A stretch of DNA of 64,000 nt from Psammoneis japonica (GCA_008632985.1 QPGO01000129.1:124001-188000); one strand, 5' to 3'; numbered from the stretch's first letter, positions 24,380 to 64,000 are shown. Numbers and translations are program-made. Notes: generated by a model not told the origin, from the sequence alone.

Positions 24380-24513
24380 CAATGTTGCTGGAGCACATTG
24401 CACGTGAGAGATGTTCTGGGCAGATCCTCACCTGGCAGGGCAGTGCATGAACAGCCAGGAGATGCAAAAGAGTGCCACAATGAATGCTGCTGTCACTGCT
24501 TTGTGTGCACACT

Positions 24514-31184: not shown

Positions 31185-32990
31185 CTACGTTTCTCTTATC
31201 ATTACCGTGTGGCATCTTGTCGTGTCCCAAGGACTTGACCCTTTGAACAATCTTGCCTTTGAGAATGCGAAGTTTGTAATTGGATGGCTTGTTGTAAAAA
31301 GCTCGAGAGAAAAACGCTCGGATGACTTACGCAGCAAAAGATTCAGAATCGTCCCAAATATAAAAGCGTACAAAGTGCAAGTCAAGCTGATGACATTGAA
31401 TGGCATACTCATATCAGGAACAGGAGGCATAAGCAACAATGGTCCATTTGAGTACAAGGTATACGGCCGAGCTGGCGGCTTACATTCCCTGACACCTGTT
31501 CCAGCGGAAGCTCCTTCCAAAATTACCGCTGAGGACGGAGGCATTTCAATTCCTCGATTGGAATCAACCGGGAATTCTTCAAATGACAAGAGCTTGGGGT
31601 TGTAGTCAAGTGAAGCCGTCACACGTGAATTCGGTGGTAGAATCATATCAAGCTTGACAACAGCAGTTCCGTTTTGGTAGAATGACACGCCGTGATGAAA
31701 TATCTAACCAACATCCTGTTGGTTGGCGGGCCACACCGACACAGTTTCGTCCCTTGCTACATTACCAAAACGGTGTACAACTTGGAATGATTTCCACGAG
31801 GGCAACACAAAGTCGGAGACTACAATCGTAAGGTTGAAAGCTGTAGATGCAATCTGGCAGTCGTAGTCTTGGTCTGCAGGATGATGAGCCTCCGTGATGA
31901 GAGTGCCGGTGTTGGAAATCCCTCGTGGCCGTAGAATTGTTTGGGACAAGCTCCAGTTGCTGTTTGATGCAAGTTCTTGACGTTCCCGCTCATTGAAGGA
32001 TGAGGTGATTGGAATCATGGCTTGATCAAATGGACCACCGTCGTTGAATGAAACATTTTTACAAGAGTTTTGATTCGGGGCCGATTCGTACATCCTTATT
32101 GTTCTCGTCGACTCGGCAACCGGGCAAGACTTAAATTCGAGTCTTTGCTGCTTGCTATCCTCTGAAATAGGCGAGAAAACGGTATGAGCTTCGATCATGT
32201 CGCCCTCTCCAGTGTCACACCGTATCGTATTCTCCGATGAATATAATGATGAACAGGCGATGTTGAGTCTTCAACGCAAGAGGCCTTCAAGTCTATCCAT
32301 TTAGATCTTGGTACGAGCGAACTTGTCGTTGATGGGGACGTCCCCAGCAACACATTCGACATGGAGCTTGTAGACATGATGGAGCCCAAGACCCCGGTAT
32401 TAAAACAACTTTGCGGCGTCAGCGCCGTTTGGAATGAGCTCACACCTTATCTATGCAGATAGACATGGGACCAATTTCTGTCGGCAGAACTACGGTTGCT
32501 TTCCAAACATTAGCGACTTTATTATCTTCTCTCCTTTCAACATGGATCCATCGATGTAAGCAAGGAGAATCAACTGAATCAAGTGATGCTAAAACGATGC
32601 GTCTGTCGGCCAAGTGAGATATAGGGTGGTAAATTGGATTCTCACTTGATCTTCCGAGCGGTTCTCGTCAAGAACAAACCAAACCATAATAGAAAGACCC
32701 GATGGACTCGAATATGGTGAGATGATATAGCCATAGGTTTTTGATAGCATGATGAGTCTTCCCACGAATCAGGGCCGTTGTTGTGTTGATAAGCATCCAA
32801 CGACGAAGATGTTGAAGATGAGGAAGTTTGAATCAAGATACGAGACGCCTGGAGCATGGAACCGTTTCAACACTTCTTTTACTGCATATGGAAACGGTGT
32901 TGCCATTGTAACAAGGGAAGTTGCGTGTGTTTCCAGTCTCACTCGGAACGTTGGCCAGTGTCTGTTTTCTACTGCAACCCCAGAATCCAC
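31185..32990 (-). CDS. PIGT: GPI transamidase subunit PIG-T/GPI16-like gene (frame interrupted; possibly a pseudogene or spliced)
   Basis: LLSFEEFPVDSNRGIEMPPS and PLLLMPPVPDMSMPFNVISLTCTLYAFIFGTILNLL match the PIG-T C-terminus (PDFSMPYNVICLT-type motif). Split among ORFs 31185-31688, 31704-32198, 32195-32443 and upstream pieces. 5' end approximate. Confidence 0.8.
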
Positions 32991-35900: not shown

Positions 35901-36037
35901 CCCCCTCTCAGCCATTGTGGCACACTTTGAAGGTGCAGCATCCTCTGCCATCAGCTTTCTTCACCTTGCAATGTCACTGTCCTGCTTTTCCAATTTTTCT
36001 GCCATGTCAACCACCTTGTCACAGCAGTTTGGGTGCA

Positions 36038-41531: not shown

Positions 41532-41800
41532 TTGGTTCTTGAGCTGGTCGCTGGAGCATGCACTGTGGTGTGCCTGGTGATTTTTTTGTCATGTCATCTT
41601 GCGCAGCAGAAAGTCTGGAATGATGCCCGCTGTTCTTTGTGCCAACTCAATGCCTTTGGCCTTGTCTTTTTTGTCCTGAACAAAACCTCTGATGAGCAGG
41701 TGTCCTTCCATTTGTTGCGTCATTGCTGGTGCTTTGTTCGCCAAAGCATCAACCCGTTTGAGCAGTTGTTTTGGCGCTTGGTGTTTTTGGAAATGGCGTG
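41230..41800 (-). pseudogene. Phytanoyl-CoA dioxygenase (PhyH)-like Fe(II)/2OG oxygenase fragment; second partial copy at about 38530-38810
   Basis: FTVFLFFDNMTEDNGTIEIWPD...VGEAGAAFVFDSGMLHHALPN matches the PhyH pattern LDD-T-ENG-----PG ... G--G----F----H----N. Confidence 0.65.
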
Positions 41801-41878
41801 CTGACCCTTTCTTCAACACACTTTCTGCACATCTCCTTTTTTTGGTTGCTGCTTTTTTCCTCCCCAGGTGCAACTCCT

Positions 41879-42056
41879 GGCCTGTGCTGGCTCCAGGTGA
41901 TGCACAATTCATCGTGCAAAAGGGTGTGAGTGTTGTGTGCACTTGCCTTTCAATTTGGGAAAAAATCGGTTTTGAGCAAGTTCATTGTGCCAAATGCACA
42001 AATTGGCCAGTGATGGGACTCAAACCTCTGCGCATCACCTGGAGCTGGAACAGGCC
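41879..42056. mobile_element. 178-bp MITE with 4-bp TSD TCCT, same family as 24514-24773
   Basis: tcct|ggcctgtgctggctccaggtgat ... atcacctggagctggaacaggcc|tcct. Confidence 0.85.
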
Positions 42057-43156
42057 TCCTCTCTGCCTTGCCGCATTGCCAATTGGCCATGATTGCAACG
42101 TTGATGTTGTGTTGGCCACCACCTGGCAAACTTCTGACACCCATTGACTTTGCACTTTTGCCCCATTTTCTGACCTTTGATCATGTGTGAAGGATCAGTC
42201 TGCCTCTGCCAAAATCCAAAGTCAACAAACAACCAGTGTGTCATTGCTGCCAAGCTCCTCTGACACCAGATCTTGCAAGGAGGCAACAACGTCAAACATT
42301 TCATGCACCCGCTGAGCAGTGGTGCACCAACTGTGTTCACCGGTTGGACAGCAGAGGTCTTTCCTGAAATGCAAACTCACATCTTCTTCACAACAAAATG
42401 TTGTTTTGGCTGCAGTGGACTGCTTTCAGCTCTTCCCAGCCAGAAACACATCGCAGCAGTTGGCAACCCCCTGTGTCTTTTCTCTGTCAACAATGCATGT
42501 TTGTGACTGCAGACAATGAAGAGTGCATGCCAACATGAGCCAAGGTTGTCATTTTAGATTTGGCGCCATCAAAAAGTGAGCACATTCCAACATCACATCT
42601 GCCCATTGACGCCGCAATTGAAGACACAATTTTTGTCAACCAAAGTCAATCCACTCCCACCAGGACTTGATTCTGCATTGATGAAACCTGTGTCTGGAAA
42701 TGAAACATTGGAAAATGCCATCTTTGTTGTTTTCATGTTCTGTTGGTGCCACAAACAATGGCACCTCTTTGCATCCAATTGCTGGCCAATGCACAGTCAT
42801 TGATGCAACAACGTTTGTTCTCAACACAAACAAACAAACAAACAATTTTCTTTTTGACACAGCGACATTCGCTGCAACACACCACACCAACTGTTGACAT
42901 GATCTCCCCCTTGCAGAATGTTGGCAAACCCATTGCCTCTCCCACCATTTGATCACCCAACTCAACAGTGTCAGCATTCTCCAAAAACATCACGCAGCTC
43001 CACCTGCTCCATGTCATCCAGCACAATTTCCTCCGCTCTTGAGCCACAATCAACGTTGTTGCTGTCCAAAAACTTGCTCTTCACCACCATCTTGCCATTG
43101 TCTGCCACCAGTGCATCTGGCACCCTGTCAAGCAAACAGACAGCTTGACACCAAAT

Positions 43157-46100
43157 GGAGCAAATGCTGTTGCACTGTCATGAATGTGGGCAGTTTATGT
43201 GCTGTTGGCGATTGGTCCACTGTCACTCATTCAGTGGCCCCGGTGGCGCAACATCTCACAATTCTAGAACATGCTGATGCTGTTCAACACTCTGCCTTGT
43301 CTTGCACCCAACCCTCAGCTGTCATGGCAGCATTTGTTCACTTTGTCAGAGCCAATGCGCTGTGATGTTCATCACCTGGAACGGGCATCGCGAACGGCAC
43401 GACGGCATCGTTGCAATCGATCGATTTTTGCAGCAAGCGCCATGTTGGTCCCATGGTTGCTCGCGCAATTGCTGAGTCCTTTGTGTTTGTCAACATTCAT
43501 GCATGTGAACGACATGCTCTTGGAGACCAGAGCTGTGATCCGTCAGACATGACGTTAGAGCACGGAATGTTTGATCACGTGGATGGAATGTGTTGGCTGA
43601 GGCACACAAACATTTGTGACAAAGATGACATGATGATTTGTGCGCTGATGTCTGTCATTTGATCACATGCATTTCATTGATCAAAACACGTTGTCAAGCT
43701 GCTTGGACACTGTGCATGTGGACACATGTCTGTTGCCAATCATTGCTTGGGAGTGACACCGCCTGCTCGCGGGTTCGCCAAGTAGAAACCGCCAAATCGG
43801 CACAAGAACCACACATTTTTCTCACTTTCCTCCACTCACACAAGTGGATGCTCACGTGTCGAAATGCAAACAACTGCTGATGCACCATGGCCGCTGCCGC
43901 AGCCTTTGCCGCTTGTCTTGCGCACTGTGGACACAATGCGCAGATGTGCACCTGCACAGCCCATCAAGGCTTTGCTGCTGTCAAGGACTTGGAACAGGTC
44001 CCTTTGACAGAAATTGCCGACATGACCAAGGGCATTGTGAAGAGCGTGGATGCCGCCACTGACCCCCGAGTCCGCTTCCCATGTCTGGTGAATCACAAGC
44101 TCAAGGCACTGCGCACATGGATTGGCTGCCGCAGGGCCCGAAATCAAGAGCCGACCGCTGCTCTCTTTGCTGGCGACGTCATTGGAACATGGACGGCACA
44201 TCTCACGGAACTGGAGCAGTTCAAGTCTGCAGACTCGGATGACGAATCAGCTGCCAAAATGGCCGTGGAGCTCAAGAACCCACATGACTAGCCTGCCTTC
44301 CAAGAGTTGCTGGAGACCGAACTGCGTCACCACCGCAGTGCTGTTGCGGCATGCCCCTTGTCCACCTCATCAGGGAGCATGAAGACATCACCGCCAAAAT
44401 GTTGGATGCCACCTGCACTGCCATTGACGAGGACCTTGTTGCCACTGCTCGACTTGCAGGAGCTCAGCATGCGCAGGATGGACAATGCCTGTGTGATCTC
44501 TTGAAGAAGTTGGTGACAGGTGGGCCCGGATGGGCTTTTGTCAAGCCTTCCAATCGCAACTGCGATGGTCGCACTGCTTTCTTTGCACTCAAGAGGCAGG
44601 CAGAAGGATCGGCTGCCACCACTGCCCGAAAGAACCGTGCTTGTGCACAGATTGCTGCTGCAAAGCACACCGGATGGGGTCGATTCACTTTCGACCAGCA
44701 CGTTCAGTGCCACAAAAAAGCTCACAACGACTTGTCCGAGCTTGATGAGCCGGCAGCCGAGACCAAGAAGGTCTCTGACTTTCTGAAGGGTGTTTCCGAC
44801 CCCAGGTTGGAAACTGGTGAGAGTGCAGTGGATGGAGACCCGACAAAGCTGGCGGATTTTGAAGCATGCCAGCAGCACATGAAAACTCTGGCAGAAAATG
44901 CCAAGAACCGCAATGCTGACACTCGTGGAATTGCATCCATCCAATGCCACAACAACCGGCATGGAAACCCTGGCGGAAAGCACCAACCTAAAAAGGACAA
45001 GCCCAGGATCTGGGCAGGCCATCATCCCACAGAAGAGTGGAGTGCTCTTGACGGTCCTGAGCAAGAGCAAGTTCAAAAGCTCTGCGATGCCAAGAAAGCC
45101 AAAAAGAAATGCAAAGCTGCAGCTGCGTCCTCGGAGGCTGAGACGGTCGATGCCGAAACTCGCGCTGTTAAGAAAGCGACCATTGCCGAGCCCAATCCTC
45201 AACCTGCTGATGAGCCAAAGGACTCTGAAGAGCCCAACAAACCTGCCGCCAATGCAGGCACCCAGTTCAGACGCAGTGTGCACAAGAAACCTCAGAAGGA
45301 GGAACGAATGGTTGCACCAGCACCAAAAGGCACAGAACCAAATGTCCCTGAACCTGCTGGCACTGCACATTTATCTGAGCGATTCTCAAAGGACACACAT
45401 GTCTCTTCATCATCTGCTGGAAATTCAGATGATGAAGCAACCACTGATTTGGACTCGCACGCTGACACGTGTGCTGTTGGGTCCAATTTTATAATGTGCT
45501 CTGATGTCGACAGAACTGTCATGGTGCACCCTTGCTCCGAAGAGCACGCACCAATGGAAAACATTCCTGTTTGCATGGCTGCTGCCATGTGGGTTGATCC
45601 AGCTGATGGACAACCACACCTGCTGCCAGTCCATGAGGCTGTGTTTTTCGGGGACAAGATGACTGACACTCTCCCATGCCCCAACCAACTGCGAGCGAAT
45701 GGACTGATTGTCCACGACACCCCTTGCCAGTTTGATCCGACTGGCGCACACTCTGTTTCTTTCCCTGACTCGAAGATCAGGACACCATTGTGAATGCGAG
45801 GTGTTGCTTCAGTCTTTGATTCACACAAGCCAACAAAGGAGGATTTGGAGAACCTCCCCCAGCTGGAACTCACATCACCCCTGAGATGGGAGCCTTCTGC
45901 TGATGCCCTGGCGCAAAAGGAGGAAGCGCGTGCATGTGCCAGTGTGCGCCAAGGATCAGCAAAGTCTGACGGACGGTCGACGATGATGAATGCGATCAGG
46001 TGTGTTGCCTCCATTCATTCACACCAAACGTCCTGTCACAATGAGAGCGTCATTGTGGATGCTGATGACGATGATTCTTTGCATCACCGCCTGGTTGCTC

Positions 46101-49100
46101 AGGCAAATGTCTCCCACAATGACACTGAGGGAGACGGGCCACACGACCGGCATGACCTGGATGTCCACCTGGATTGTGCCGAGCGGAAACGGGTGCATGC
46201 ACTGTCAAACTCGGGTCGTGCATCAACCATCACACCCAAGACACTTTCTAAAAGGTGGAACATTTGCCTGACGGCCGCCAAGAACACCCTTAGAGTGACA
46301 ACCCAGGCAGGGGTCCGCAATGCCTGCACACCTTCCGAATGGAAAGTCCGGAAGAAAGCCCCTTGGCTTAAGTTCCCTGCTGTCAAGGGACGCTTCTACT
46401 CTGACCAGATGTTTTTGAAGGTCAAATCAACACATGGCAAGATGGGAGGAAGCGCGCTCACCAACGGAAGAGGGTGTGATGGGTTCTGTCCTTGGAAGAG
46501 GAAACAGGACCACCCAAACACCGTCATGTCATTCATGCATGACGTTGGCACACCGCAGGTCCTTGTGTCGGATGGCACGCCGGAAATGGCTGGAAGGCCA
46601 GACCAAGGAGATCTGCAAGGAACACAGGACACACCAGGAGGTGTCCACCCCTTGCAGCCCCTGGCAGAACCTGGCCAAGGCATCCATTCATGAGTTGAAG
46701 AAAAGAGTCCGTGTGACTCTACGCCGGACTGGCGCTCACAGGCGACTTTGGTCCTGTGGTGCCAAATGGATGTGTGACATCTGACGCATGATTGCGGCTG
46801 GCATGTCGGATGTGGGAGGACGAGTCCCAGAAGAGGAGGTGACAGGTTCAACACCTGACATCTTGTCCCTCTCTCTCTTTGATTGGCATCAACCTGTCTG
46901 TTGCTGCATGCCTGTGGCGGAGTTCCCACATGAGAAGAAGTGCATTGGCCATTGGCTCGGAGCAGCTGACAATTGCACTGATGACATGGCATTCATCATC
47001 TTGCCTGAATCAGGCAAACCCATCATTCAGAAGGATGTGTGGGCCATGCCGGAGGATGACCTTAAAACTCCAGCGATCCAGACAGATCTTGCATTGGTTG
47101 ATCAAGCTTTGATCGAACAGCTTGGCATCCCGGAACAGGGTGCCAGTGCTGACTTCCCTGAACTCCCTGACGACTTCATGGACGAATGGGACGATGCCGT
47201 TGAACCCGTGGAACCCGATGCTTCCAAACCGGAAGCTGATGAGCACACCCCGGAGGGGGCCAGATGAGTGTCTCACAGCTCAAGTCATGTCACCATGCGG
47301 AGGCGAGCTGACTCATGCCAGGGTCATTGCACGCAAAAGAGATGGCGACGGGGTTCCCATTGGTGCTGGGAACGACAACCCTGTCCCAGACTCAAGGACA
47401 CACGATGTGGAATTTCCTGATGGATCTACTGACTCCTGTGCTGCTGACGCAATTGCAGAGAACCTGTTCGCACAGATCGACTCTGAAGGGAATGCCTGCC
47501 AGATTGTGAAGGAGATGGTCGATCACCGACGTGATGCCCGTGCTGCAATGGCCGATGACGGGTGCATGACGACTGAGACTGGCAGGCGTGCTCCTGGGAG
47601 GACGACCGCAGGCTGGGACCCACAAGTCAAATGGAAGGATGGGACTGCATCCTGGGTTCCTCTCAAGGATTTGAAGGAATCCAATCCAGTCGAGGTTGCT
47701 GAGTGCGCTGTGGCAAACAAAGCAGCCAGTGAGCCAGCCTTTAACTGGTGGGTCCGCGACGTCTTGTGTCACAGGTCAAGGATCCTGAAGAAAGTCAAGT
47801 CGCGCCACTGGAAACGCATGCACAAGTTCGGAGCTGAACTCCTGAAATCTGTCAAGGAAGCCATGTAAACAGACAACAGAATGGGGACTGACTTCTGGCT
47901 CAAGGCTGTTGAGAAGGAAATGCGCAACGTCATGCCTGCGCTCGAATTCCGCGATGATGACACTGCACCGGTCGGGCACAAACACATTGATTGTCACATG
48001 ACTTTTGACATCAAGAGCACCCTCCAATGCAAAGCGAGGTTCGTGGCCGGAGGCCATCAAACTGATCCACCCAAGGAATTGACCCACTCCAGCATGGTGT
48101 CGCGTGATGGCGTTGGGATGGCATTCACTGTGGCAGCTCTGAATGACCTGGAGGTCCTGAGTGCTGATGTTCAGAATGCCTGCTTGAACGCACACACTGA
48201 GGAAAAGTGTTGCACTGCTGCTGGCCTGGAATTTGGGAAGCAGAATGAGGGAAGGCCGGCAATCATTGTCCGTGCCTTGCATGGTCTCAAGTCTTCAGGT
48301 GCAAGATTTAGGGAACACATGGCAGCTGCTCTGCGGGATGCTGGGTTTGAGTCTTGCAAGGCTGACCCGGATGTCTGGATGCAAGCTGCGGTTAAGCCGG
48401 ATGGCTTCAAGTGCTGGGAATGTGCACTTGTCTGTGTGGACGACTTGTTGTGCGTCTCCCATGAACCTCAGAAGGTCATGGATCATGTGAGCTCTAGACA
48501 CACGCTCAAGGACGGAAGTGTCTGCGAGCCGGAAGAGCACTCAGGCGCCCAGATCAGAAAGCACCAGCTGTCTGACTCGGATGGTGAGACACGCTGGGCT
48601 GTGTCTTCTGACATTGGTGTCAAAAGGGCATCAGCTGATGTTGAATTGGAGCTTGAGAAAACTGACAGGCATCTTCCAATGAAGGCGTCGACGCCCTTGA
48701 GCTCGGGATGCAGGCCTGAACTGGACGGCTCACCTGAGTTGAATGCCAAAACGGCCAACTGCTGTCAAGGCCTTGTCGGTGTGCTGCGGTGGGTGGTTGA
48801 ACTAGGGCGAGTGGACATTTTTGTCACTGTCTCACTCATGTCCTCCTGCTCAGTGGCACCACGGGTTGGACACCTGGACAAGGTGCTCCACATCTTTGCA
48901 TGCTTGAAAGCTCATTCTAAGTCTGCGCCAGTGTTCGACGACACTGAGCCCGTCTTTGATGAGAGTCACTTTGCCAAGTGTGATTGGGAAGAACATTGCC
49001 CTGGCGTGGCTGAAACAATGCCGCCGAACATGCTGGAGGCATGCGGGAACAGCGTGACAACTGCTTGCTTTGTCGATGCTGACCACGCCGGATGCCATGT

Positions 49101-49853
49101 GACATGCAGGTCCCATGCTGGGATCCTGACATTTGTCCAACGAGCACTCATCCTGCATTGCTCTAAATGGCAGAATGCCATAGAGTCCTCTGCTTTTGGG
49201 TCGGAGTTTGTGGCTGTGAAGACTGCAGCGGAGCAAATTGAAGCCTTGCATCACAAGCTTCGGATGCTCAGAATCCCCATGGATGGGGCCACTGACGTTT
49301 TCTGCGACAATGAGGCTGTCTTCAAGAACTCAACTGAACCAGAGTCCACTTTAAAGAAGAAGCACAATGCAGTTGCCTGTCACAGGACTCGTGAGGCACA
49401 AGCCGCTGGAACAGCGCGCATTGCTTGGGAAGACGGACGCACGAATTTAGCAGATGCACTGGCCAAGTTGTTGCCTGGACCAAAGCTCCAGGAAATCACA
49501 AGCCACATCCTGTGGTGAGTCCCAAAAGGGGACAAACCAAACGGGTTTGCCGCGCAGGTGTGGCTTTTCCCACCCCCAAAATGAAAATGCCACCCTGGAG
49601 TGGGGCAGCATCAGGTTGCATTTGTCTGTCAATCTGGCCCGAGCGGAGCTGGTGTCAGTTCGAGGGGACTGAATGAATGCTGACACACTGTCACGAACAC
49701 AGGCAGTTCATGTGCTGTTGGCGATTGGTCCACCATCGCTCATTTGGTGGCCCTGGCAGTGCAACATCTCACAATTCTAGAACCTGTTGATGCTGTTCAA
49801 CACTCCACCTTGTCTTGCACCCAATTCTTGGCTGTCATGGCAGCATTTGTTCA
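43157..49853 (+). mobile_element. Full-length Ty1/copia (CoDi-like) LTR retrotransposon A, inactivated
   Basis: Direct LTRs at about 43157-43340 and 49671-49853, PBS-like tgtcagagcc after the 5' LTR and PPT gagggga before the 3' LTR. Domain order is gag, protease, integrase, RT, RNase H. TSD ambiguous (aaat occurs at both ends). Confidence 0.95.
43887..49518 (+). pseudogene. gag-pol of element A; conserved Tyr replaced by Cys/His, several stops and frameshifts
   Basis: Protease DLDSHADT, integrase VLVSDG and PCSPWQNLAK, RT KARFVAGGH, ADVQNACL, RALHGLKSSG and CVDD (48433-48444), RNase H FVDADHAG, FCDNEAV and NLADAL. ORFs 44351-45793 (480 aa) and 47881-49518 (545 aa) contain no Tyr. Confidence 0.95.
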
Positions 49854-52800: not shown

Positions 52801-55800
52801 GGAGTTGCAACACATTGTGGCTCTTGTGTGCAGGCACTCATTTCCTGCCCTGTGATTGCACAAATGATGGGTAGATTGGCCTGGCAATGAAGCAGCTCAC
52901 AAAGAACCGCCTTGAGAGTGCGGCAACAATTGGCAACAACAAGGTGCACAGACTCATCCTTCTTTTCTTTTGGGTCAGCATTTGTTGCAGGAGAACAACA
53001 GAGCTTGTTTTTTTGCTTTTGACTGGGCACAAAAATCTCTTTTTGTTTGTTGAGAAGCAACAAGGAGAGACAAAGTTGGTGCTTTCATGACCAGCCAATG
53101 TTTTGAGTCAATGAGTGATGAGCAAAATGAGCACATTGTGGATGAGTTTTGATGCAACCCTGCCTGCATCATTTGCCAAAGTGGCTGGATCTTCGATTTT
53201 CTCAAGACTGGCTGAGGCAAATCAGAGCAAAGCAGAGCAGAGCAGAGCATCTCTTTTCGTGTGCAAAGTTGTCCACAGCACTGGACATTGAGCTCACATG
53301 CTTGGCACAGCAGCAGCTCTTGTTGACCCAGAGATTTGACAACATTGGTGTTGCAAGTTTTGTCATTGCAGGAACTTTGTCAAGCTGTTTTGTCACAAAA
53401 GTGGCAGAGACCAATGTCAACACCCGTCAGCGCAGTGCCAACATTGGGGTTGTTGAAGTCACAAAGTGTGCACTGCCTTTGAGAAGAGACTTGGAGCTGG
53501 GTCACTTTTGGCTGTTGTTGATCTTTTGCTCAACACCAAGCACTCCATGGAGAAAGTGGCAGGAGTGGTGCACCAAAATGGTGGCTTTGTCAAGCCAGGG
53601 ATGTTGGTCAATGCAAAATGTGGTCAGGAGCTGGCACCCACTGCTCCTTGCAACAGCACACTCCTTTTTGCATGACAGAAAATGAAGATGACTGGGTGGA
53701 AGAAAACAACAACTCCTTGCTGCTGTCTAAATGGCAGATGAGTCTCGGTGCAGAGACCGTTGCAGGAGCCGAAAGACTGGTGTCATGATGTTGGTGCTGC
53801 TGTCATCATTTTTGTGAGCCCAGTGGCTCAAAAGCAAACTGCATCACATGACACGTGCGCAGAACTGAGAGCACACACAATTGTGTGTGACAAACTAAAA
53901 TCTTGTTCAAATCCTGTCACTCCCCAGTTTGCTTGAGGGGTCAACAGCAACAGATTCAAAGTCGGGTTGGTTGAAAGCCTCAGGATTGAAGCTCCAAAAC
54001 ATTAGAGGATGAAGGAGGTTCCAGATTTGGGAGCAACCCCAATGCTTGCTGAGGATGCCAGCCGGGTTGCAGGAGCCTTCGACAAAATGAAACTCAAGGA
54101 AACTGGAGGCAATTGCCTCACGCACACAATGGAACAAGAGGGCGGTGTGTCACTTGTGCAACTTGGAGTGCAGGATGGCAGCACTGTCCACAACCAACTT
54201 GAATGGACACTGTCGATGGGCATGTCTGTGAGGTGTCCATCAGCAACAAGCCTTGCTTTGTGCCATCCGTCATGTTTGACGTCACAGATGAGATGCACCC
54301 GGATCTTCTTGTGTCCTGATGGAGCACTGGAGTCGTTGTGGTGTCCGCAGTCATGGAAGACCTTGCACTCATCAAGCTGAGTCATCTTGAGGTCCGTTGC
54401 ATCTCCCCACTTGCAGTTGCCATTGCACTCATCAAGGGCCATGGCATGCCTGCAGTCCCGTGGCACTTCACACCCGCACTTGCATCGTGGTGCAGCACAA
54501 AAGGAGCGCAACTTGGCTTGGTTGGCCATGCGGAACAGCTTCTTCTGATGAAGGGCTGTCTTGCAAAAGCATCTCCATCCTTCGGTTTCTAGAAGGCTGT
54601 GCTCATGCGCACAGATGGCACAGGTGATGGGGTCATCCTTCTTGGCAATGACGGCAAGGGGTTTGGACGTGATCTCCCCATTCTCCCATTCAAGCATGAC
54701 GTTGCAGCTTGAGCCTTTCCAAGAGAAATCATGGGGTCGCAATGGTCCTTCGTGCGATGCGATGCGTTGGAACTTCCAGAGGGTGGTGTCCTCGTCTTCT
54801 TGCTCAATGTGGTGCATGATGTCATTGCAGGCCAGGACTTCCTTGCATTCGTCATTGTTGACGGAGCAAATGAACTTGACCAGTTCAGGATTGTCTCCGG
54901 TTTTCCAGTCATGGTCCTCAACAACTTTGACGATGCGGGCTCTGCAGCGTTGTCCACCCTCTTGTGGCTTCATGAGAAAGGTGTGTCCTGTGACATCCTT
55001 GGGGTCAAAGACCGGCATTTTGGGCATCCTGATCACCTCCCCATCTGGCGAATCTGGCAAATCCTTGGAGTCGTGGTGGGATGTGATGACAGGTTCAGCA
55101 GATTTCTTGTCAGGAGGATCAAGACGCAGGTTTGGAGCAGACGGATCATGGGCGGAGTGCACGTTGGAACGGCAGAGAATCTTCTGAGTGTCATCAGAAA
55201 GAATCTTGAACGTCATTTGGTGGCCAATGTGCTCAGCGATGTGCGGGAGGCCGGCTTTAATGTCGATGGGAATGACGCATCCATCAACAGTGGTGACACG
55301 CTGCAGACCATCGGGGACCTTGATGGACCGATCATTGACACCATGTTTGTGCCACTCAAGCTGGCCGCAAGAGTGTGGCAGGGCCACGATGCATGTGGAT
55401 GACACCGCTGGCAGCGACAATGGGAATGTCTGCCAGTTGATGATCATCGACACCTTGGACGTCAATGTCATTGGGCTTCACGTCAGAGCGGACGGAAGGT
55501 GCAGATCTGGGCGGTTTCTTGCCAGAACGGGCGGAAGGAGGCCGTTCAGGTGCCAGGAGACATTGCAAGTCGCTGGGTGGAAGGGGCTTGTGCCTGGTGA
55601 GATGAGTCAGAATGGGGTTAGTGTCAGCTGCATCGGCTGCAGCGTTGGATTGTGCGAAGGCTGACGCAAGATCGCGAGTGTTGGCGGACAAGTTGACATC
55701 GCCATCACTGCCAATGTGGAGGTCATGCAGGTTGACCGCCATCAAGTCATGGCAGTTGCCGGTGTGGGCGGTGCACAAGCCAAGAATGATGGCCTTGGTG

Positions 55801-55821
55801 GACTGGGGCAAGGTGTCCCAA

Positions 55822-56210
55822 GACGCGTTCCAGGTCCAGGTGGGACCTTGCACTGCTGAACTGTGACATCGACAGTTTTTTGAATCGCGTCGCATGTTGC
55901 GCACGTGCATTTCTACGTGATTTTGGCGAAATTTTGCATCATTTTACAGTGCAATTGTCAGGCGATCCATTCAACAACTTTTAACATTTTTTTCTTCTGC
56001 ACCATTCTTGAGTGTCTTAAGAATGGCGTGGGGCAGGCGCATTGTCCAAAACTTTGAGTGCAAACAGAGACATGTGCACTGCAAACTTGGCCGTTTGTTT
56101 CATGTCGAAGACAAACACATCCATCAACCAGAGTGTGAACTGCAGAGCTTGCACGCAGTGTTCCATGGGGCAAATGTCACAAAAAGTCCCACCTGGGTCT
56201 GGAGCCCGTC
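55822..56210. mobile_element. 389-bp MITE inserted in gag of element B, 4-bp TSD CCAA
   Basis: ccaa|gacgcgttccaggtccaggtgggac ... gtcccacctgggtctggagcccgtc|ccaa. Removing it restores QCVW-DTLPQ. Confidence 0.9.
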
Positions 56211-57143
56211 CCAAACGCACTGATGGTCCAGCGGAATGCGACGCCATTGTTCCTTGGTGAGGGAATTGCCACGAATTTGCACAGCACAAGCTTGGATGAT
56301 GTCAACATCACTGTCGATGTCAAAGAACACATCATCATCAGGGTCATCAGGGACCAGGTCATGTTCACAGATGGCACGGCGCGGAGCACAAGGAGCTGTC
56401 TTGGGGGCAAACGTGCTGTTGCACTGTGCTGCAGCAGAAAGCAGGAGTCCACAGTGCTCTTTGCAAGAGAGCCCCTTTTCATTCTGCACGCGGAACTGAT
56501 CGGCCAGATTCTTTGCTGAGCGGAGTTCTTCAACAGGATGAACGGCGTTCTCAAGCATGGCATGTTTCTGGCCAGCAGAGAAATGGTCTGCACCCGGGAC
56601 AAGAGCTTTGTGCTTGTGAATCAGGTCCTGCCAGTGAAGTGTGGAGGCATGAGTGGATCCCTTCCAGGTGCCATCACCGAGGCGAGCAGTGGTGAGGTGC
56701 ATGAGAAGGGTCGAGGACTCCAGGGATGCACGAGTGGAAGCAAGGGCGCACTTGGAGAGGTCACGACACACCGCTTGAGCATCAGAGGAGCTGACATGTT
56801 GATGAACAAGTGCCCTGCCTTTGTCATTCTGCAAGATCCGTTCCAACACTGCGAACATGCACTTCTGTTGTTCATCAAACAGGGCCTTGTCCTCAGCCGT
56901 GGAAGGATTGCATGTCGGATTGAGAATGCGTGCGACGTCTTGGGAGCGGGCCTGTGCGATGATGGAGGTGTGCCATGTGTGCCGCTGTTTGCAGGACTTG
57001 AGAAGCACAAAGGTGAGTGGGTCACGTTTGATGCCTCACTCAAAGTCACGCACGGGATCACGTGGTTTGGGTGGCAACAAGCCAGGAGTGGGAGCAGATG
57101 GTGCTGTGCCCATGGAGAGGGACGCTGCATGCTCAGGACCAAG

Positions 57144-57533
57144 GATGTGTTCCAGGTCCAGGTGGGACCTCACACTGCTGAGCTGTGACATCGACAGTTT
57201 TTTGAATCGCGTTGCATGTCGCGCACGCAGATTTCTGCGTGATTTTTGCAATGTTTTGCATCATTTTATGGCACATTTGTTGAGCGATCCGTCCAACAAC
57301 TTTTGACATTTTTTGTTGCAGCACAATTCTACAATGTCTTGAGAATCGTGCAGGGCAGGCGCACTTGCGAAAACGTCGAGTGGTGTGAGGCACAACTGCA
57401 CCACAAACTTGGCCATTTATTTGATGTTGAAGACAAACACATCCACCAATTAAATTCTCATGCAACGGAGCTCGCATGAAGAATTCTGTGGGCCCAATGT
57501 CACACGGAGTCCCACCCAGGGCTGGAACGCGTC
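57144..57533. mobile_element. 390-bp MITE, same family, second insertion in gag of element B; TSD CAAG/TAAG
   Basis: caag|gatgtgttccaggtccaggtgggac ... gtcccacccagggctggaacgcgtc|taag. Interior aligns with 55822-56210. Confidence 0.9.
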
Positions 57534-57957
57534 TAAGATGACAGTTGGTGAACTCCTCTTGTGTGAACAATTGAGGGTCATTGCTGACATCTGCGCCGTG
57601 CACGCTTTTACCTTGTGCAGGCCAATCAGCGCAGCTGTCTGTGCTTTGCAACCACGTGGCAAGGGCATTTGATTGGTGCCATCGTTGCACACAAGGGCAT
57701 CCAATTGCACCAAAGTAAAAGTGACAAGGTCCTGGTGCGAATCGGTTCCATCAATGTTGAGGGCGGAGCGCAATGGACTGTCTGTGGCTTGATTCAGAAC
57801 AGTGCCTAGAATGTGCTTGAAGCCATCGATTTGTTGTTGCCTGGTGAGAACCATGTTGCAACTGGGTGGATGTCGGAACTGGCTGGAATCAGAGTGTGGG
57901 CTTGAAACAACTTGAAACTTGACTTGAATCTTGACTTGATGTCTTGAACTGTCTCAA

Positions 57958-58501
57958 GGATGGATCGTTGAGATGAGGTCTGTCCACGTGCGAGCTCGCA
58001 TTTTTTTGGAAAAAACCCGGATTTCTTGCACTGGATGCGCGCACTCGCCAACAAAATGTTTTCAGCGATGGGCGCGCTCGCCAACAAAATGTTTTCAGCG
58101 ATGGGTCGAACTTTCTCCCTTCAAAAGACATCACAGAATGTGTTGGCGATGGTTGTGACCATGCGCGATCTTTAGCTTGACGACTGAAGACATGTCCATG
58201 GCCAGTCAAACGCCAATTGTCGGCTTTTCCTGGAAAGTTGTGGCTTGTCTCCCATGAGCAGTGCGATTTTGGCGAAAAACAGCGGTTTGTTGCATGTGAC
58301 AACTGCACCAAATCCGACAACTGGCATTTGAAGGTTGAAATGTGTGGCTCACACACAGATCTGACAGCCCTGATGGGGGCTGGACACAGTCATGTGTGTT
58401 TGGGGGTGCTCAGAGGCATCGCAAAATGACACGGGCGAAGTGCGGGGAAATTGCAAAATCACGAGCTAATTAAAAAAATGCCTCATCTGGACGATCCATC
58501 C
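57958..58501. mobile_element. 544-bp non-autonomous DNA transposon inserted at a TTAA site (Kolobok-like termini)
   Basis: tcaa|ggatggatcgttgagatgagg ... cctcatctggacgatccatcc|ttga. The homologous empty site in element C reads ctgattttaagacagttc (about 62697-62714). Confidence 0.8.
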
Positions 58502-59923
58502 TTGAGAGTCAGAAACCGCCGGGCTGCGACATCCTGTTTGCAGTTGAGTGCTGAGCTTCCCATCCGGTCCACAGGGTTGTGCCGGCACATCCGAGCCCGC
58601 AGCTGGCGACGCTTTGGGTTGCTTGAGAGTGGAGCAACGGGTTAAAAACCCCTGCTGACAAGCCAGCCAGAGGTGGGCAAGACCTCCAAACCATTCTTGT
58701 TTTATGTCGGTTGGATGACCCGATCAGGCCAGCCAAATTTGGTGCTGTGGAGGGACGAACAAAGGTGGGAAATGCACCCTTGCCCCAACGCAGGCTGTGA
58801 TCATGAACTGCTTCCTCTCACAGTTGTCCTCGCAGACCTTGTGGGACTGTGGAAGACCAGCAATCCGGCGCAGATACAAGGTGGCAGACTTGGCGTGCGC
58901 GGAGCAGAGCCAGAGTCAGGGGTTTGTGTCGTGTGCGCGTGGACGTGAGCGGATGGATTGGTGGGATCCGCTGTGAGGAATCCAGAATCTCGGATGTCTG
59001 AGGATTCGGGAATTCCTGGCCAAACAAACATCCGTTGAACAAATGTGTCCAATGATGAGAAGCATTGGATGAATCCAAACATGCAGATTTAATCCAGCGT
59101 CCAACAGTGAAGAAGGTAGACACACACTTCCACCACCAATGGTGCGCGTCATCGAAAAATTTCTCGATGACGATGATGAATGCTCAATGGACAATGAAGA
59201 GCAAGGCTGTCAATCTGACAGAAAATGAAGATGACTGGGTGGAAGAAAACAACAACTCCTTGCTGCTGTCTAAACAGCAGATGAGTCTCCATGCAGAGAC
59301 CGTCACAGGAGCCGAAAGACTGGTGTCATGATGTCGGCACTGCTGTCATTGTTCTTGTGAGCTGAGTGGCTCGAAAGCAAACTGCATCGCGTGACGTGCA
59401 CGGAACCAGGAGCACACATGATCATGTGTGACAAACTAAAATCTTGTTCAAATCCTGTCATTGCAGATTCAGCTGATCCAGGGCTCACTTTCAACACAGC
59501 AACATCAGCCCAAACAGACAGCCGCTGACTCACACCATTGATTTGAAGCTCTGGAGTTGGCCCATGTTTTCAATCCCCAAGCCACTGAAAGCAGGCCAGC
59601 CCAAAGACGGGGGCATTGTCAACATTGAATCCACAACCACAAGCTGATGCTGGCAAAGAATTGGAGATAATTCCAGGACATTGAGTGTCTCACCCCTCTT
59701 CTCACAACTTTGCCAAAACCTCTTTGGCCAAGTCTTTTTGCATGCACGGCCAAATTGTCAACATGGGCAAGTTCAAAATGCACCGGCTGTCCAGCAGTTC
59801 CTCCCAGCCAGATGGAAGAAGAAGAGAAAAGGAAAAGGAAGGAAAAAATGAACATTGATGAAGGTTTGAAAGGGTGCGCTGCAGCACCGCAGTGCGCACA
59901 GTGGTGAAGACGGACGTGGACAG

Positions 59924-61450
59924 GTGCAGACGCGCTGCGTGGAATTTGGTGCGAAGTGTCATGCGTTTGCGTGCGCAGAAGGATGTGGATCACCAACGGC
60001 TGGAACAAAGCAGCACACCACACAGCAGTCAGTGCAGCTCTGTCATCACGGTGCTAGAATGGCAGAGGACAACATCGTTGCATCTGGCAAAGCAGAGGAT
60101 GCAGCAGCTCCGGAAGTCATGGCAGAACTCACGGGCGCCGAAGGCGCGGCGGCAGCTGCCATGACTGCACTTGGCACCGAGGGAAGTGCCGAGGGTGTGT
60201 CTGTCGAGTCCAAACATGCAAGGATGTCGGAGAAGCCAGCGCAGCCCCAAACTGAAAAGAGGGAGAAAGCCGTGCCGCCGGAGCCAACCTTTCAAATTTG
60301 TGGTTGGAATGTCGAGTTGGTGGGTGATCAGGCCACCTTTGTGAAACCGGAGGTCCTGCCTTTTTGCAGCGGCAAAAGCGAGGAGGCAGCCAAGCCCACG
60401 GCCAAAGTGGTCGCGAAAGCAACGGCGGAAGAGGAAGAAGAAGGAAAGCAATTTCCGGACCCCAGCGATCCGTCATTCAACTTGTGGGACTGGGTGTTGC
60501 GGCACGAAAAATCCGACAATTTCCAGGAGTCCATGTGCCTGATGAAGGATGCGCCGAACAATCCCGACCTCTGGTTCCCTGTGCTGGGAGAACTGGGGTG
60601 CATCAGGAGCGACCCTGAAGCCGTCGCAAATGCTCACGGCGAACACCACAAGTGGGTGTGGAGGTGCCGCACGGAAGTCGACGAGAGGGGCATCCCAGAC
60701 TCGACGCCGAAGAGCAACAAAGTGTTCAAGACCGCCGTCGAGGCTTTCGAAGCAGGGTGGTCGCTCGCACTGGTCCACCTCGTGAAGAGAGCAAGCACAA
60801 AAGTGTGCACATTTGGATGAGGCGCCGTGTCACTTCAACCTGCGTTGTTTTGCCTCAAAAAGTCCGTTCGCTCCGCAGGCCCCAAGGAGGTGGAGGTGGG
60901 CGAGCTGCGCGTGTCGCAACGGAGGGGCACAGGCATTGGTTTTTTTGCTTTGCGCCAGTTCCAGAAAGGCAGCACGGTTGGAATCTACATGGGCCCCAGG
61001 GTGCCCGGTGCGACGAGGAGCCACTCATGGTGCGACCACGACAGCAAGTTTGGAGAAGACCACAGCGTGTGCTGCTCCACCATCCATGACAGCGAGGGCT
61101 GCTGCGTCACAGTGGAGCCAAAACTGCTTGATTTTAGCAGTCCAGGGAACAAGAATTCCCATCCACTCTGCCTCAGAATGCACTGCGTGAACGATGCCAC
61201 CAAGTGTTCAAGGACAAGAAGAAGATCAAGGCAAGCCAACACGCAGACAACAACTGCGAGTTCTGCAACGACGGGTGCTTGGCAGTCATGAAGCGAACCA
61301 TGCCCGGGGAGGAATTTCTCTGCAGATGCAACTTGGACGAATTGGAGAAGAAGAAGAAGAAGAGGAAGGCAACGTCGGGCGCCATGAATCGGAAGAAGAA
61401 ATCGCGTCTGCTCCCCAAGTCGGGGGGGAGAAGCTCTGCGTCTGGCAAAA
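59924..61450 (+). pseudogene. SET-domain protein, TA-hypermutated and frameshifted
   Basis: GIGFFALRQFQKGSTVGIYMG, LCLRMHCVNDA and NCEFCNDGCLAVMKRTMPGEEFLCRCN follow the SET pattern GxGxFA..KG..IG-Y-G, Y-N(H/D) and GEEL---Y, with Tyr to Cys. Confidence 0.7.
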
Positions 61451-61605
61451 CGTTTGCCGTGCAGTGTGCTCTGCAAATTAGCAGCACAGTGTGTTGGTGT
61501 TTTTCAGCGAAACTGTGGCATCAGTTGGAAAGGCGCAGCCCCAGTTGTGGTTCGAAAAATGGGAACGAGGAAGAACAGAAAGTCGGCAAATTTGTGCATG
61601 TCCAG

Positions 61606-64000
61606 TGACAGGATTTGAACAGGATTTGGGGTGCGCACGAAGTGTCGCGCGCTGTTTAGTTTACCGTGCACAGTTTTGTGTGCTTTAGTTCCGCGCGTTC
61701 ACGCGCGATGTAGTTTGCTTTCGAGCCACAAGGCTCACAAGAATAATGACAGTAGCCCGATTGTGTGCCGACTCACACGTCTTTCGGCTCCTGCAACGGT
61801 CTCTGAGCGGAGACTCATCTGCTGTTTAGACAGCAGTAAGGAGTTATTGTTTGAATTCTTGCCATTTGCCTTCATTTCCTGTCAGATTAACAGTCTTGCT
61901 CATTGTCAACCCATTGAGCAACCGCCATCGTCGTCGTTGATTTACCAACGACGCTATTTCAATTCTACGTGGACCTCCGTATATATTCTACATACATCGG
62001 CAAGTCTACGCGCATTCGATACCAGGGCATCGGCAGGAAGTTAACGTCACCGTCAAGTCTCCTTACCGCTGGATATCTGGATTGATTACACTACCTTTGA
62101 CCGCTGAAGACATACATTCAACGGTCATATCCAAGTCTATCCTTGATCCTCATCCCTTGATATACCTATTCATCGGTTAACGGTCAAGAACCCTACATAT
62201 TCAAGGATCTTCGTCGCTGAAGACATGTATATATATACATGTCTTCACGGCCAAGAACCTGTACCCACTCTTCGGACTGCGGTTTTGCCACCACTCTGCA
62301 GGCACACCGAGTCCATTGTACCTGATCTACCCCGGACTGCTGGTGCTCTACAGTTCTGCTGGGTCCACGAGGACGACTGTGAGAGCAAGTGGCCGTGATT
62401 GCAGCCTGCGTTGGGGCGAGGGTGCTTTCCCACGTTTGTTCGTTCGTCCACAGCGCCTGACGCCTACGTCAACTGGCCAGCCTGATCGGGAAATCCAACC
62501 GACATAAAATAAGAACGGTTCGGGGGTCTTGTCCACCTCCAGTCAGCTTGCCTGCAGGGGTTTACAACCCGCTGCTCCGCTCGCAAGCAACCCAAAGCGC
62601 CACCAGCTTCGGGTTCGGACGTGCCGGCACAACTCTGCGGACCGGATGGGAAGTTTAGCACTTGACAACAAACGGGATGACAAAGCCCGGCGACTTCTGA
62701 TTTTAAGACAGTTCAAGATTTCAAGTCAAGTCTGTTTCAAGTCAAGTCTGTTCTCACCCAAGTTTCGAGTCTACCTTCTCTTCCCAACCAGAATTGATTG
62801 TCCTGACACCACTTTTGTCTGCCATGGTTCTCACTCGTCAGCAACAAACCGATGGTTTCGAGCACGTGGTTGGAACCGTGCTTGCCCAAGGTGCTGGGAG
62901 TCCTCTTCGTTTGGCTTTGGCCCAAGACGGCACGGACTCGCATCAGGAACTGTTCACGTTCATGCCGTCCCAAATCGACTCGCTTGAGTGCGACAACGGC
63001 ACTAATGCAATCCCTTTGCCCCGTGGTTATAAGAACATGTTAGCAGCACTGGTCAGTCTGTACATTGTCAAAGCACACAAAGGTCTTGACGTTGCCAACG
63101 ACTCCTCTTTGTTCACGCATGACGAGTTCCTTGCCTGCCGCCTCAGCCCCGACTGCATGTCTTCTGTGTCCATCGGCAGCTCACCCCTTGCACCTCCACA
63201 TGTCACCAACCCGACCAAGGCACGCGACCCGGTGCGGGACTTCAAGCGAGGCATCAAGCGTGATCCCACCGCTTTCACGGCTCTCAAATCCGACAAGCAG
63301 TGGCACACTTGGCACACCTCACTTGTGGCACAAGCCCGTGCCCAAGACGTCGAGTGCATTCTAGACTCGTCGTACAAACCGACCAGCCCCGAAGACAAAC
63401 TGCTCTTTGCTGAACAGCAAAAGCACATGTTCGCCGTCTTCGAACGCATCCTTCTCACCGACAAGGGCAAGGCTCTCATTCGCGAAAATGTGGGGTCTTC
63501 TGACGCACAGACCGTCTGCCGCTCCTTGTCTGAGTGCGCGCTTGCCTCCACCCGTGCATCTGTCGAGTCCTCCACCCTGCTCACGCACCTGACCACCGCT
63601 CGTCTTGGTGATGGCACTTGGAAAGGTCCGACCCACGGGTTCATCCTTCATTGGCAAGATCAGTTGCGCAAGTGCGAGGCACTCATCCCGGCCAGTGACC
63701 ACTTCTCTGAAGGACAGAAGCGCGTCATGCTCGAGAATGCCGTGCACCCTGTCGAGGAACTCCGTGCTGTCAAGAACCAAGCTGATCAGCATCGTGCGCA
63801 GAGTGGCAAGAGCCTCACATGCGATCAACACTGTGGCTTGCTCCTCTCCGCGGCAGCTCAGTGCGACAGCACGTTTCAACCCAAGACGACACCTCGAGCT
63901 CCCCGACGCGCCACACACGCACATGACGTCTGCTCCGAGGAACCGTCCGACGATGTGTTCTACGACATTGACAGCGACGTTGACGTCCTTCAGGCCAATG
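61606..64000 (+). mobile_element. Ty1/copia element C (same family as B): 5' LTR, leader and gag, only partly mutated; runs off the window
   Basis: LTR 61606-61884 (tgacaggatttgaac...ttcctgtca) is homologous to the B LTRs. gag starts at ATG 62824 (MVLTRQQQTDGF), includes RDPVRDFKRGIKRD and appears open to the window end. Confidence 0.93.

Follow-up and report, generated by a model that had tools for sequence, protein, structure and literature searches.

The closest described counterpart of the system considered here comes from the alga Bigelowiella natans, for which the text of a 2026 preprint reports that, in mutation-accumulation lines, two integrated viral regions mutate approximately 1000-fold faster than the rest of the genome, and that these chromosomal viral inserts acquire A>G and T>C mutations at TpA dinucleotides only, and in some lines only (10.64898/2026.01.13.699255). 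In the same text, Mettrop et al. propose an ADAT2-like adenine deaminase as a defense of this alga (10.64898/2026.01.13.699255). Here we analyze a 64,000-nucleotide stretch of DNA from a probable diatom (Psammoneis japonica, GCA_008632985.1 QPGO01000129.1:124001-188000), hereafter the window, with emphasis on three related long terminal repeats (LTRs), namely the two LTRs of a Ty1/copia-like retrotransposon designated element B and a single LTR of the neighboring element C. It is likely that these three LTRs record a hypermutation acting on DNA and removing TpA from resident selfish sequences.

Additional background is provided by enzymes described in other settings. ADAR favors U before the edited A (as quoted in 10.64898/2026.01.13.699255), the amphioxus protein BjADAT2 is reported to edit DNA (PMC10354150), and diatoms carry DNMT4 enzymes related to fungal RID, to which the text of the source assigns no function (PMC9998398); no link between DNMT4 or RID and the chemistry described below is seen. 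A search of the literature returned the B. natans preprint as the only report of TpA-directed hypermutation of DNA, with no second, and a look-up of terms in two papers on diatom transposons found no mention of hypermutation, deamination or dinucleotides.

The elements and repeats upon which the analysis draws are given below, in coordinates counted from the first letter of the window. A reciprocal site is a position that reads TG in one LTR and CA in its sister; O/E denotes the observed/expected ratio of a dinucleotide.

22598-23083, plus strand: unmutated copy of a repeat whose inverted partner, 23883-24372, is mutated
43163-49853, plus strand: element A, also a hypermutated copia element, which serves as an independent replicate
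43163-43340 and 49676-49853: LTRs of element A, with 8 reciprocal TG/CA sites
47869-49515: reverse transcriptase (RT) open reading frame (ORF) of element A, 549 amino acids, 0 Tyr; its YVDD motif reads CVDD
53673-59460, minus strand: element B, an LTR retrotransposon with the target site duplication (TSD) TTGCA
53668-53672 (left) and 59461-59465 (right): TSD TTGCA, identical on both sides
53673-53919, minus strand: 3' LTR of element B, 247 bp, TGACAG...CCTGTCA, carrying the focal CA
53920-59215, minus strand: internal region of element B, a hypermutated Ty1/copia-like pol with TpA O/E 0.06-0.09 and CpG O/E 0.6
59216-59460, minus strand: 5' LTR of element B, TGACAG...CCTGTCA, carrying the focal TG
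61606-61884, plus strand: 5' LTR of element C, unmutated, with 9 TA and intact CpG, holding the TA at 61744-61745
61885-64000, plus strand: 5' untranslated region (UTR) and gag-side ORF of element C, continuing past the end of the window

A preliminary description of this DNA had drawn attention to a single site at which the three LTRs differ, and the dinucleotides it gave are confirmed: CA at 53807-53808 (gtcatCAttt), TG at 59350-59351 (gtcatTGttc) and TA at 61744-61745 (reverse complement gtcatTAttc). Its labeling of the B LTRs as 3' and 5' is correct, since RT homology, in the form of matches to copia polyproteins, lies on the minus strand (54197-55276), and its C LTR, approximately 76% identical to those of B, lies where it was placed, although with a slightly shorter span (61606-61884) than had been implied. 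Element B displays direct LTRs ending in TG...CA together with a 5-bp TSD, the arrangement expected of an LTR retrotransposon. Its ORFs have no Pfam match, the copia-type reverse transcriptase family RVT_2 included, and align, at 26-58% identity, to copia polyproteins carrying PF07727; this loss of Pfam signal fits the mutation load of the element.

Comparison of sister LTRs provides information on both the timing and the strand of mutation. The LTRs of B are 88.7% identical over 247 columns and differ by 24 transitions and 2 transversions, with 20 of the 24 transitions sitting in pyrimidine-purine (YR) dinucleotides; the LTRs of A likewise differ at 26 positions. Reciprocal sites number 7 in B, the focal site included, and 8 in A. 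When the 24 transitions of B were placed at random, a mean of 0.52 reciprocal sites was obtained and none of 20,000 trials reached 7, while for A the mean was 0.82 and none of 20,000 trials reached the observed 8. Decay of CpG can also generate such sites, and the number expected from it was estimated from positions at which CG persists in both LTRs (CG/CG) or in one only (CG/x), the counts for B implying approximately 12 ancestral CpG and a loss probability of 0.5 per LTR.

B LTRs: CG/CG 3; CG/x 6; reciprocal sites expected from CpG decay 1.5; observed 7; Poisson P 0.0009
A LTRs: CG/CG 1; CG/x 4; reciprocal sites expected from CpG decay 2; observed 8; Poisson P 0.001

As the observed numbers exceed those expected from CpG, most reciprocal sites stem from TA and arose after the LTRs were made. 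The possibility, raised in the preliminary description, that such sites were ancestrally CG is thus answered by 7 and 8 sites where 1.5 and 2 are predicted, and the same excess lends support to its overall reading, that the hits fell upon chromosomal DNA after insertion and on either strand, residency being deduced from the LTR pairs. That B represents one insertion, also proposed there, agrees with the identity of TTGCA on both flanks and with the transitional nature of 24 of the 26 differences.

Between the LTRs of each pair, TG and CA are found in either arrangement, and within the pol ORFs the ratio of Cys (TG) to His (CA) is 10:4 in A and 5:2 in B. The presence of both polarities in the LTRs and pol ORFs of a plus- and a minus-oriented element excludes editing of RNA only or of minus-strand cDNA only; neither the single polarity nor the like sister LTRs characteristic of ADAR- or APOBEC-type editing prior to integration was found. 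The earlier argument that editing during reverse transcription gives one polarity is too simple: two-stage edits, of plus-strand strong-stop and minus-strand DNA, could in principle leave the 5' LTR with TG and the 3' LTR with CA.

Four independent lines of evidence show that TA is ancestral and that TG and CA are derived, as the preliminary description had maintained, namely Tyr codons, one-way changes within a repeat pair, the lack of CpG decay in C, and other copies in the genome. Firstly, the Tyr content of the A RT ORF (0 of 549 residues) compares with 4.0% in 40 relatives (the first 40 of 120 listed, P0121-P0160), and at 15 columns of conserved Tyr the element carries Cys 10 times, His 4 times and Gly once; the ORF also shows Arg>Cys 3 times and Arg>His twice, the marks of CpG decay. 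Similarly, the 491 amino acids of the B ORF at 54005-55477 include 27 Cys, 29 His and 0 Tyr, with Cys 5 times, His twice and Trp once at 8 conserved-Tyr columns; its relatives (22, picked from 150 listed for coverage of the region) contain 3.2-4.8% Tyr and 0.2-1.7% Cys. Secondly, the 37 TA of the repeat copy at 22598-23083 correspond in the inverted partner to CA (14), TG (18), CG (3) and TA (2), with 0 reverse cases. Thirdly, TA in C is aligned with TG or CA in B, with one weakly aligned opposite case, and there are 0 sites at which CG is kept in B but lost in C; in the absence of CpG loss in C relative to B, a double hit from CG to TA in C at the focal site is very unlikely. Finally, 13,827 contig pieces from sequencing run X1 align to the window, indicating a family of very high copy number, and the changes from copy to copy are nearly all transitions. 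Among the 40 best-supported of 1,026 variable places, a set that excludes the three focal sites, CA or TG of the window reads TA in 9 and CG in 14 other-copy cases.

The outcome at an ancestral TA depends upon its neighbors. The target is shown to be the A of 5'-TAY-3' (Y, pyrimidine) on either strand or, equivalently, the T of RTA (R, purine), a rule that is new here. The outcomes by ancestral context are as follows, with proxy ancestors, both B LTRs scored against the same C sites, and 16 outcomes outside TG, CA, CG and TA omitted.

YTAY ancestor: TG 17, CA 3, CG 1, TA kept 1
RTAR ancestor: TG 1, CA 7, CG 0, TA kept 0
RTAY ancestor: TG 6, CA 8, CG 2, TA kept 0
YTAR ancestor: TG 5, CA 3, CG 0, TA kept 5

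The polarity of YTAY differs from that of RTAR (Fisher P = 0.0007). Consistent with the rule, the TA surviving in TpA-depleted (purged) blocks are of the form YTAR in 192 of 288 strand-symmetrized counts, versus 16% in unpurged DNA, and of the form RTAY in 8 of 288, versus 30%, with no ATAT survivors. If purged DNA is assumed to have started with the same TA density and contexts as unpurged DNA, survival can be roughly estimated at 31% for YTAR, 4.2% for mixed contexts and 0.7% for RTAY. The square roots of the outer values, 0.557 and 0.084, multiply to 0.047, near the observed mixed survival of 0.042, and such multiplicative survival is what independent hits on two strands predict; the rarity of TA>CG double hits, in turn, indicates that one hit usually abolishes the target for the other strand. 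The order of preference for the 3' neighbor is T > C > G > A. Within the repeat pair, A>G per strand amounts to 38/91 at TA versus 5-11% elsewhere, and adenines of the purged copy that do not follow T also show a mild excess of A>G (AA 11/105, GA 5/52, versus 2/89 and 0/52 in the reverse comparison). Along the 22598/24372 alignment, TG and CA outcomes are interspersed, and runs of one kind are not obvious.

Loss of TpA extends over most of the window. Across all 64 kb, O/E is 0.16 for TpA, 0.50 for CpG, 1.64 for TpG and 1.61 for CpA, and when the sequence is divided into 32 segments of two kb, 21 of them have TpA O/E of 0.00-0.09 with TpG and CpA at 1.6-2.0; the gain in TG plus CA approximates the missing TA plus the missing CG. 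The number of TA per 500 bp is bimodal, either 0-5 or 15-37, and the edges between the two states are sharp. With a purged position defined as one having at most 5 TA within 250 bp on either side, 78% of positions qualify, and in this 78% of the window approximately 95% of TpA is gone. The longest TA-free stretch measures 2,735 bp. The resulting blocks are listed below.

1-17413: purged block of 17 kb, spanning many element boundaries
22140-22453: purged block
22454-23337: unpurged, short AT-rich piece
23338-24823: purged block
26914-29055: purged block
33138-61494: largest purged block, 28 kb, spanning many element boundaries
59466-61605: spacer between elements B and C, with 1-2 TA per 500 bp (21-29 expected) and nearly intact CpG (O/E 0.5-0.86)
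Recognizable genes (zf-MYND, HSP70-like, ricin-type lectins): unpurged, 15-37 TA per 500 bp
LTR and 5' UTR of element C: unpurged

The host genes are thus spared, whereas the other blocks, like the copia elements A and B, contain 0-5 TA per 500 bp, a distribution that points to selfish DNA as the target. None of the protein matches came from the same species, the best identities being 47% for the HSP70-like ORF, 67% for element A and 57-60% for element B. The named relatives of the HSP70-like ORF (19249-21837) are diatom proteins, at 35-42% identity, and its nearest Atlas cluster is mostly Bacillariophyta. For the spacer at 59466-61605 no Pfam or Atlas match was obtained, and its ORF at 59870-60817 gave no usable Atlas match. 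No Pfam match reported for purged-block ORFs reached the curated score cut-off of its family, and 20 additional purged-block ORFs gave nothing above noise at Pfam E<=1.

Loss of TpA is distinct from loss of CpG. The segments at 14001-17413 and 59501-61500 are TA-free with near normal CpG, and elements A and B keep CpG O/E at 0.5-0.67 while TpA has already fallen to 0.06-0.09. The oldest blocks have lost both dinucleotides, and no CpG-poor block with normal TA occurs in the window. Accordingly, TpA is lost first, by a process distinct from the slower CpG decay. Nor does duplication in itself provide the trigger, as evidenced by lectin duplicates of 72-94% identity that are untouched (in the 94% pair, TA/TA 14 and TA>TG 0) and by the purging of only one arm of the 22598/24372 repeat.

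Sequences from other public sources were also considered. At 80 metagenome loci encoding relatives of the B RT, TpA O/E ranges from 0.31 to 1.00 and the longest TA-free stretch is 288 bp, as compared with 2,735 bp in the window; many of these loci are CpG-poor with normal TpA (for example L076: CpG 0.05, TpA 0.70). A degenerate 27-nt LTR pattern gave no match in metagenome contigs. Among proteins, 2 of 150 representatives are Tyr-free (P0264 and P0390) and 3 of 118 further relatives are Tyr-poor (P0467, P0480 and P0509). P0467 and P0509 share 81% identity with the ORF of locus L051, which is intact, and keep 7 of its 32-33 Tyr; relative to L051, Tyr is replaced by Cys 15 and 11 times and by His 9 and 13 times, respectively. 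Furthermore, Cys and His are reciprocal between P0467 and P0509 at 7 columns, at which L051 has Tyr in 7 of 7 and Arg in 0 of 7. The outgroup comparison proposed in the preliminary description, carried out here on this other lineage, therefore returns TA as the ancestor. The context rule points in the same direction in this family (YTAY: Cys 14, His 6; RTAY: Cys 12, His 16) without reaching significance (P = 0.08), as is also the case for A>G at T|A codon boundaries (TAY 14/59 versus TAR 3/32, P = 0.16). The signature in proteins from other assemblies indicates that the process, as read from these sequences, is not confined to this genome.

Taken together, these data suggest the following course of events. 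The A of 5'-TA-3' on either strand would later be read as G, most readily when a pyrimidine follows, such that a hit on the top strand yields TG, a hit on the bottom strand CA and, rarely, hits on both strands CG. Element B would have inserted with identical, TA-bearing LTRs, each of which was then hit independently within the chromosome, and these independent hits would account for the opposed TG and CA of the two LTRs at the focal site and at several more. The process would saturate transposons and other non-genic blocks while sparing adjacent genes, with CpG decay following later, presumably through deamination of methylated cytosine. As for chemistry, we infer enzymatic deamination of adenine to inosine, probably of the ADAT2/TadA kind proposed for B. 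natans, and a presumed role in genome defense. Every Tyr codon is destroyed, including that of the RT YxDD motif. The wider proposition, that an adenine deaminase acting on chromosomal DNA with 5'-TAY-3' specificity is an old immune mechanism common to SAR algae (stramenopiles and rhizarians) and the main killer of diatom transposons, saturating its targets soon after silencing and before CpG decay, is offered as a conjecture to which we would give somewhat less than an even chance.

Several observations weigh against the hypermutation of resident DNA by adenine deamination. TpA is palindromic, and for this reason sequence alone cannot separate A>G from T>C chemistry. The focal site has a single outgroup, itself approximately 76% identical. 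In the sense orientation, TG falls in the 5' LTR, opposite CA in its 3' counterpart, at 11 of the 15 reciprocal sites (6:2 in A, 5:2 in B), a bias that is not significant (binomial P = 0.12), and at 5 of approximately 7 sites where C has TA the two B LTRs share one derived state, which would be predicted by the context rule and equally by changes made before insertion. One arm of the inverted repeat (22598/24372) is purged while the other is spared. In the satellite array described below, the columns mixing TG and CA retain neither TA nor CG and could descend from either. Lastly, Pfam at E<=0.01 matched 0 of 126 ORFs (at least 110 amino acids) in the other purged blocks, and no purged DNA transposon, virus insert or host pseudogene, the kinds of DNA that never pass through RNA, was identified. 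Given the 11:4 arrangement, some of the editing may have taken place before integration.

Among the alternatives, one retains the chromosome as substrate and alters the chemistry: in silenced chromatin, a base modification at TpA, such as 5-hydroxymethyluracil (5hmU), 5-formyluracil (5fU) or a modified adenine, would mispair and yield T>C or A>G. Oxidized thymine mispairs with G, the palindromic nature of TpA makes T>C at RTA and A>G at TAY one and the same observation, and strict confinement to silenced blocks would suit a mark linked to chromatin. The spill-over onto AA and GA adenines, however, resembles an enzyme with a 5' neighbor preference rather than a palindrome-bound mark, and no such modification in diatoms was found on record in the literature searched, leaving this explanation unlikely, if still worthy of attention.

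According to a second alternative, RNA (sense A>G) and single-stranded cDNA would be deaminated in the course of retrotransposition, and copies would arrive already purged and with differing LTRs. The 11 of 15 reciprocal sites noted above are in the arrangement this predicts, all identified purged sequences in the window are retroelements, and the interior of element C is partly depleted while its LTR is not, as patchy editing might leave. Against it, the 4 remaining reciprocal sites, the focal one among them, are in the opposite arrangement, and the polarity rule is strand-symmetric and the same in plus-strand A and minus-strand B, such that two substrates would need to be edited with equal specificity. 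Moreover, the 17- and 28-kb purged blocks cross many element boundaries and include a 188-bp satellite, and B. natans shows, according to the text of the preprint, the same signature in resident single-copy chromosomal DNA. Pre-integration editing is therefore doubtful, with only a slim chance of accounting for the data.

Should the LTRs of B belong to different insertions joined by recombination, their differences would predate the present element, and 88.7% identity is indeed low for one insertion; the 5-bp TSD identical on both flanks, the 24 transitions among 26 differences, 20 of them in YR dinucleotides, and the same pattern found independently in A make this highly improbable.

Deamination of methylated cytosine at CpG as the source of all TG and CA, with the TA of C as a double hit, draws upon the CpG depletion of the older blocks (O/E 0.07-0.2), upon the LTR differences in which CG opposes TG or CA (6 in B, 4 in A), and upon the 8 reciprocal sites of a 2.7-kb duplication, for which it suffices (6 expected). 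Methylated-CpG decay is present in the window (CpG O/E 0.07-0.67) and is not sufficient for the reciprocal sites of the LTRs (7 versus 1.5 and 8 versus 2); it creates TpA and cannot remove any. The replacement of Tyr codons by Cys and His, the existence of TA-free blocks with intact CpG, the lack of CpG loss in C relative to B, and the Tyr at 7 of 7 reciprocal Cys/His columns in the L051 relative, with 0 Arg, speak against it as well. As a full explanation, which we consider to have practically no chance, CpG decay is refuted; it remains as a second, slower process.

Equally negligible is a sequencing or assembly artefact in which modified bases of silenced DNA are miscalled as TG or CA, although such miscalls are a known problem on some platforms and no library type is recorded for run X1. 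The k-mer contigs of X1 reach 315 kb at a depth of approximately 30-60, implying accurate reads, and one of 377 nt, spanning the junction between the 5' LTR of B and the adjoining DNA, matches 59434-59810 exactly; X1 may, however, have come from the sample that was assembled, and does not then represent the organism independently. TG and CA switch over distances of tens of bases rather than in read-length runs, and proteins from unrelated public assemblies bear the same signature.

A number of further features of the window were recorded. Element B contains an internal direct repeat (55817-56116 and 57139-57438, approximately 300-400 bp, 77-79% identical, 1.3 kb apart). Element C is heterogeneous: TA is normal in its LTR and 5' UTR, at 18-26 per 500 bp, as far as approximately 62350, and from approximately 62465 onward drops to 6, 7 and 1 per 500 bp with CpG intact, its ORF at 62707-63999 having 4 Tyr in 431 amino acids. 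This interior could reflect incomplete purging, recombination, or a gag that is TA-poor by nature. The unpurged AT-rich piece at 22454-23337 lies within purged DNA, its purged inverted relative (23883-24372) 800 bp away, and looks like a young insertion beside an old copy of the same family; the 22598/24372 pair is the cleanest before-and-after alignment in the window. A satellite array of 188-bp units (10122-11588, approximately 6-8 units with 68-76% matches) is TA-free, and several of its columns mix TG and CA. The interval 34001-44000, within a purged block, displays strong strand asymmetry, with GC skew to -0.21 and AT skew to -0.22. In purged blocks stop codons are reduced, on both strands, to TGA, TAA and TAG being gone, and 70 frames of at least 80 amino acids occur in 11 kb (53000-64000); it is this erasure of TAA and TAG that fills purged DNA with long open frames on both strands.

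Two duplications deserve mention. A tandem duplication inside the purged DNA (36040-38824 and 38823-41531, 2.7 kb, 92.8% identical) has copies that agree in TG or CA at 582 sites and disagree at 8, with 24 CG/x sites, indicating that it postdates the TpA purge and that CpG decay continued afterward; its reciprocal sites were dropped as evidence concerning TpA, CpG decay alone explaining them. The ricin-type lectin genes are in tandem (25638-26906 and 29481-31422), and the ORF at 29599-30900 carries a 546-bp internal repeat of 94-96% identity, all of it unpurged. Among leftover CpG of the old blocks, RCGY accounts for 36% versus 21% in unpurged DNA and YCGR for 11% versus 24%; some old-block CpGs may be new, derived from double hits at RTAY, rather than survivors.

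These results bear upon several practical and biological questions. The process is not limited to one alga or to viral inserts and may be widespread in marine protists, a wider occurrence to which the Tyr-free and Tyr-poor copia proteins of other assemblies also point. Sister LTRs with a shared TSD constitute a built-in, genome-wide test of timing and strand, and the TAY rule, together with the multiplicative survival of YTAR, mixed and RTAY contexts, gives a quantitative specificity that any candidate deaminase must reproduce. In such genomes LTR divergence is unusable for dating insertions, and gene callers applied to TA-free DNA would predict spurious proteins in which Cys and His abound and Tyr is absent. 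Should the proposed mechanism hold, nature would possess its own equivalent of the adenine base editors built by engineering, and the timing of the enzyme's action could be read from LTR pairs.

The TpA loss described here shares features with several known systems. With the repeat-induced point mutation (RIP) of fungi it has in common the transition hypermutation of chromosomal selfish DNA, on both strands, with dinucleotide specificity, sharp edges and ruined coding capacity. RIP, however, changes C>T at CpA and makes TpA, whereas here A>G at TpA erases TpA (O/E 0.02) and enriches TpG and CpA; RIP makes stop codons, whereas here TAA and TAG are removed; and RIP hits both copies of a duplication, whereas here lectin duplicates are untouched and one repeat arm is spared. 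Neither C>T at CpA with enrichment of TpA nor a duplication trigger acting on both copies was thus found. The decay of methylated CpG is similar in that a palindromic YpR becomes TG or CA according to strand, giving reciprocal sites, and differs in acting upon CpG, a loss that is here slower and later than that of TpA. APOBEC3, which acts on cDNA, and ADAR, which acts on RNA, likewise exemplify deaminase-driven hypermutation of retroelements, but they act before integration and with one polarity, whereas both polarities are present here in ORFs and LTRs and sister LTRs differ. Enzymes of the ADAT2/TadA class convert A to I at an A following U or T, and it is this class that the B. natans text proposes.

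The greatest similarity is to B. natans itself. As in that alga, insofar as the text of the preprint describes it, TpA alone is hit, becoming TpG or CpA by strand, in resident chromosomal DNA with host genes spared, and clustered low TpA with high TpG and CpA remains as the long-term trace; RT domains are, in B. natans, enriched among TpA-poor coding sequences. In the window, too, A>G and T>C changes lower TpA, the targets are selfish, and their residency is deduced from the LTR pairs. The two cases differ in host, B. natans being a chlorarachniophyte (Rhizaria) and the present organism probably a diatom (stramenopile), and, by the same text, in target, which there comprises giant-virus and virophage inserts and here LTR retrotransposons and unidentified repeats. 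They differ also in degree, depletion being modest in B. natans (Rho TpA 0.45, virus insert) and saturated here, at O/E 0.00-0.09 over 78% of 64 kb, and in the manner of observation, the events having been watched in mutation-accumulation lines there and deduced from sequence here. The text of the preprint, the supplementary mutation tables of which may hold flanking bases, makes no mention of diatoms, stramenopiles, retrotransposons, flanking bases or trinucleotides, and both the TAY rule and the comparison of LTR pairs add to what it reports. New here are the extent of TpA loss, the TAY rule, the independence of the process from CpG decay and from duplication, and its occurrence both in what is probably a diatom and among public sequences from elsewhere.

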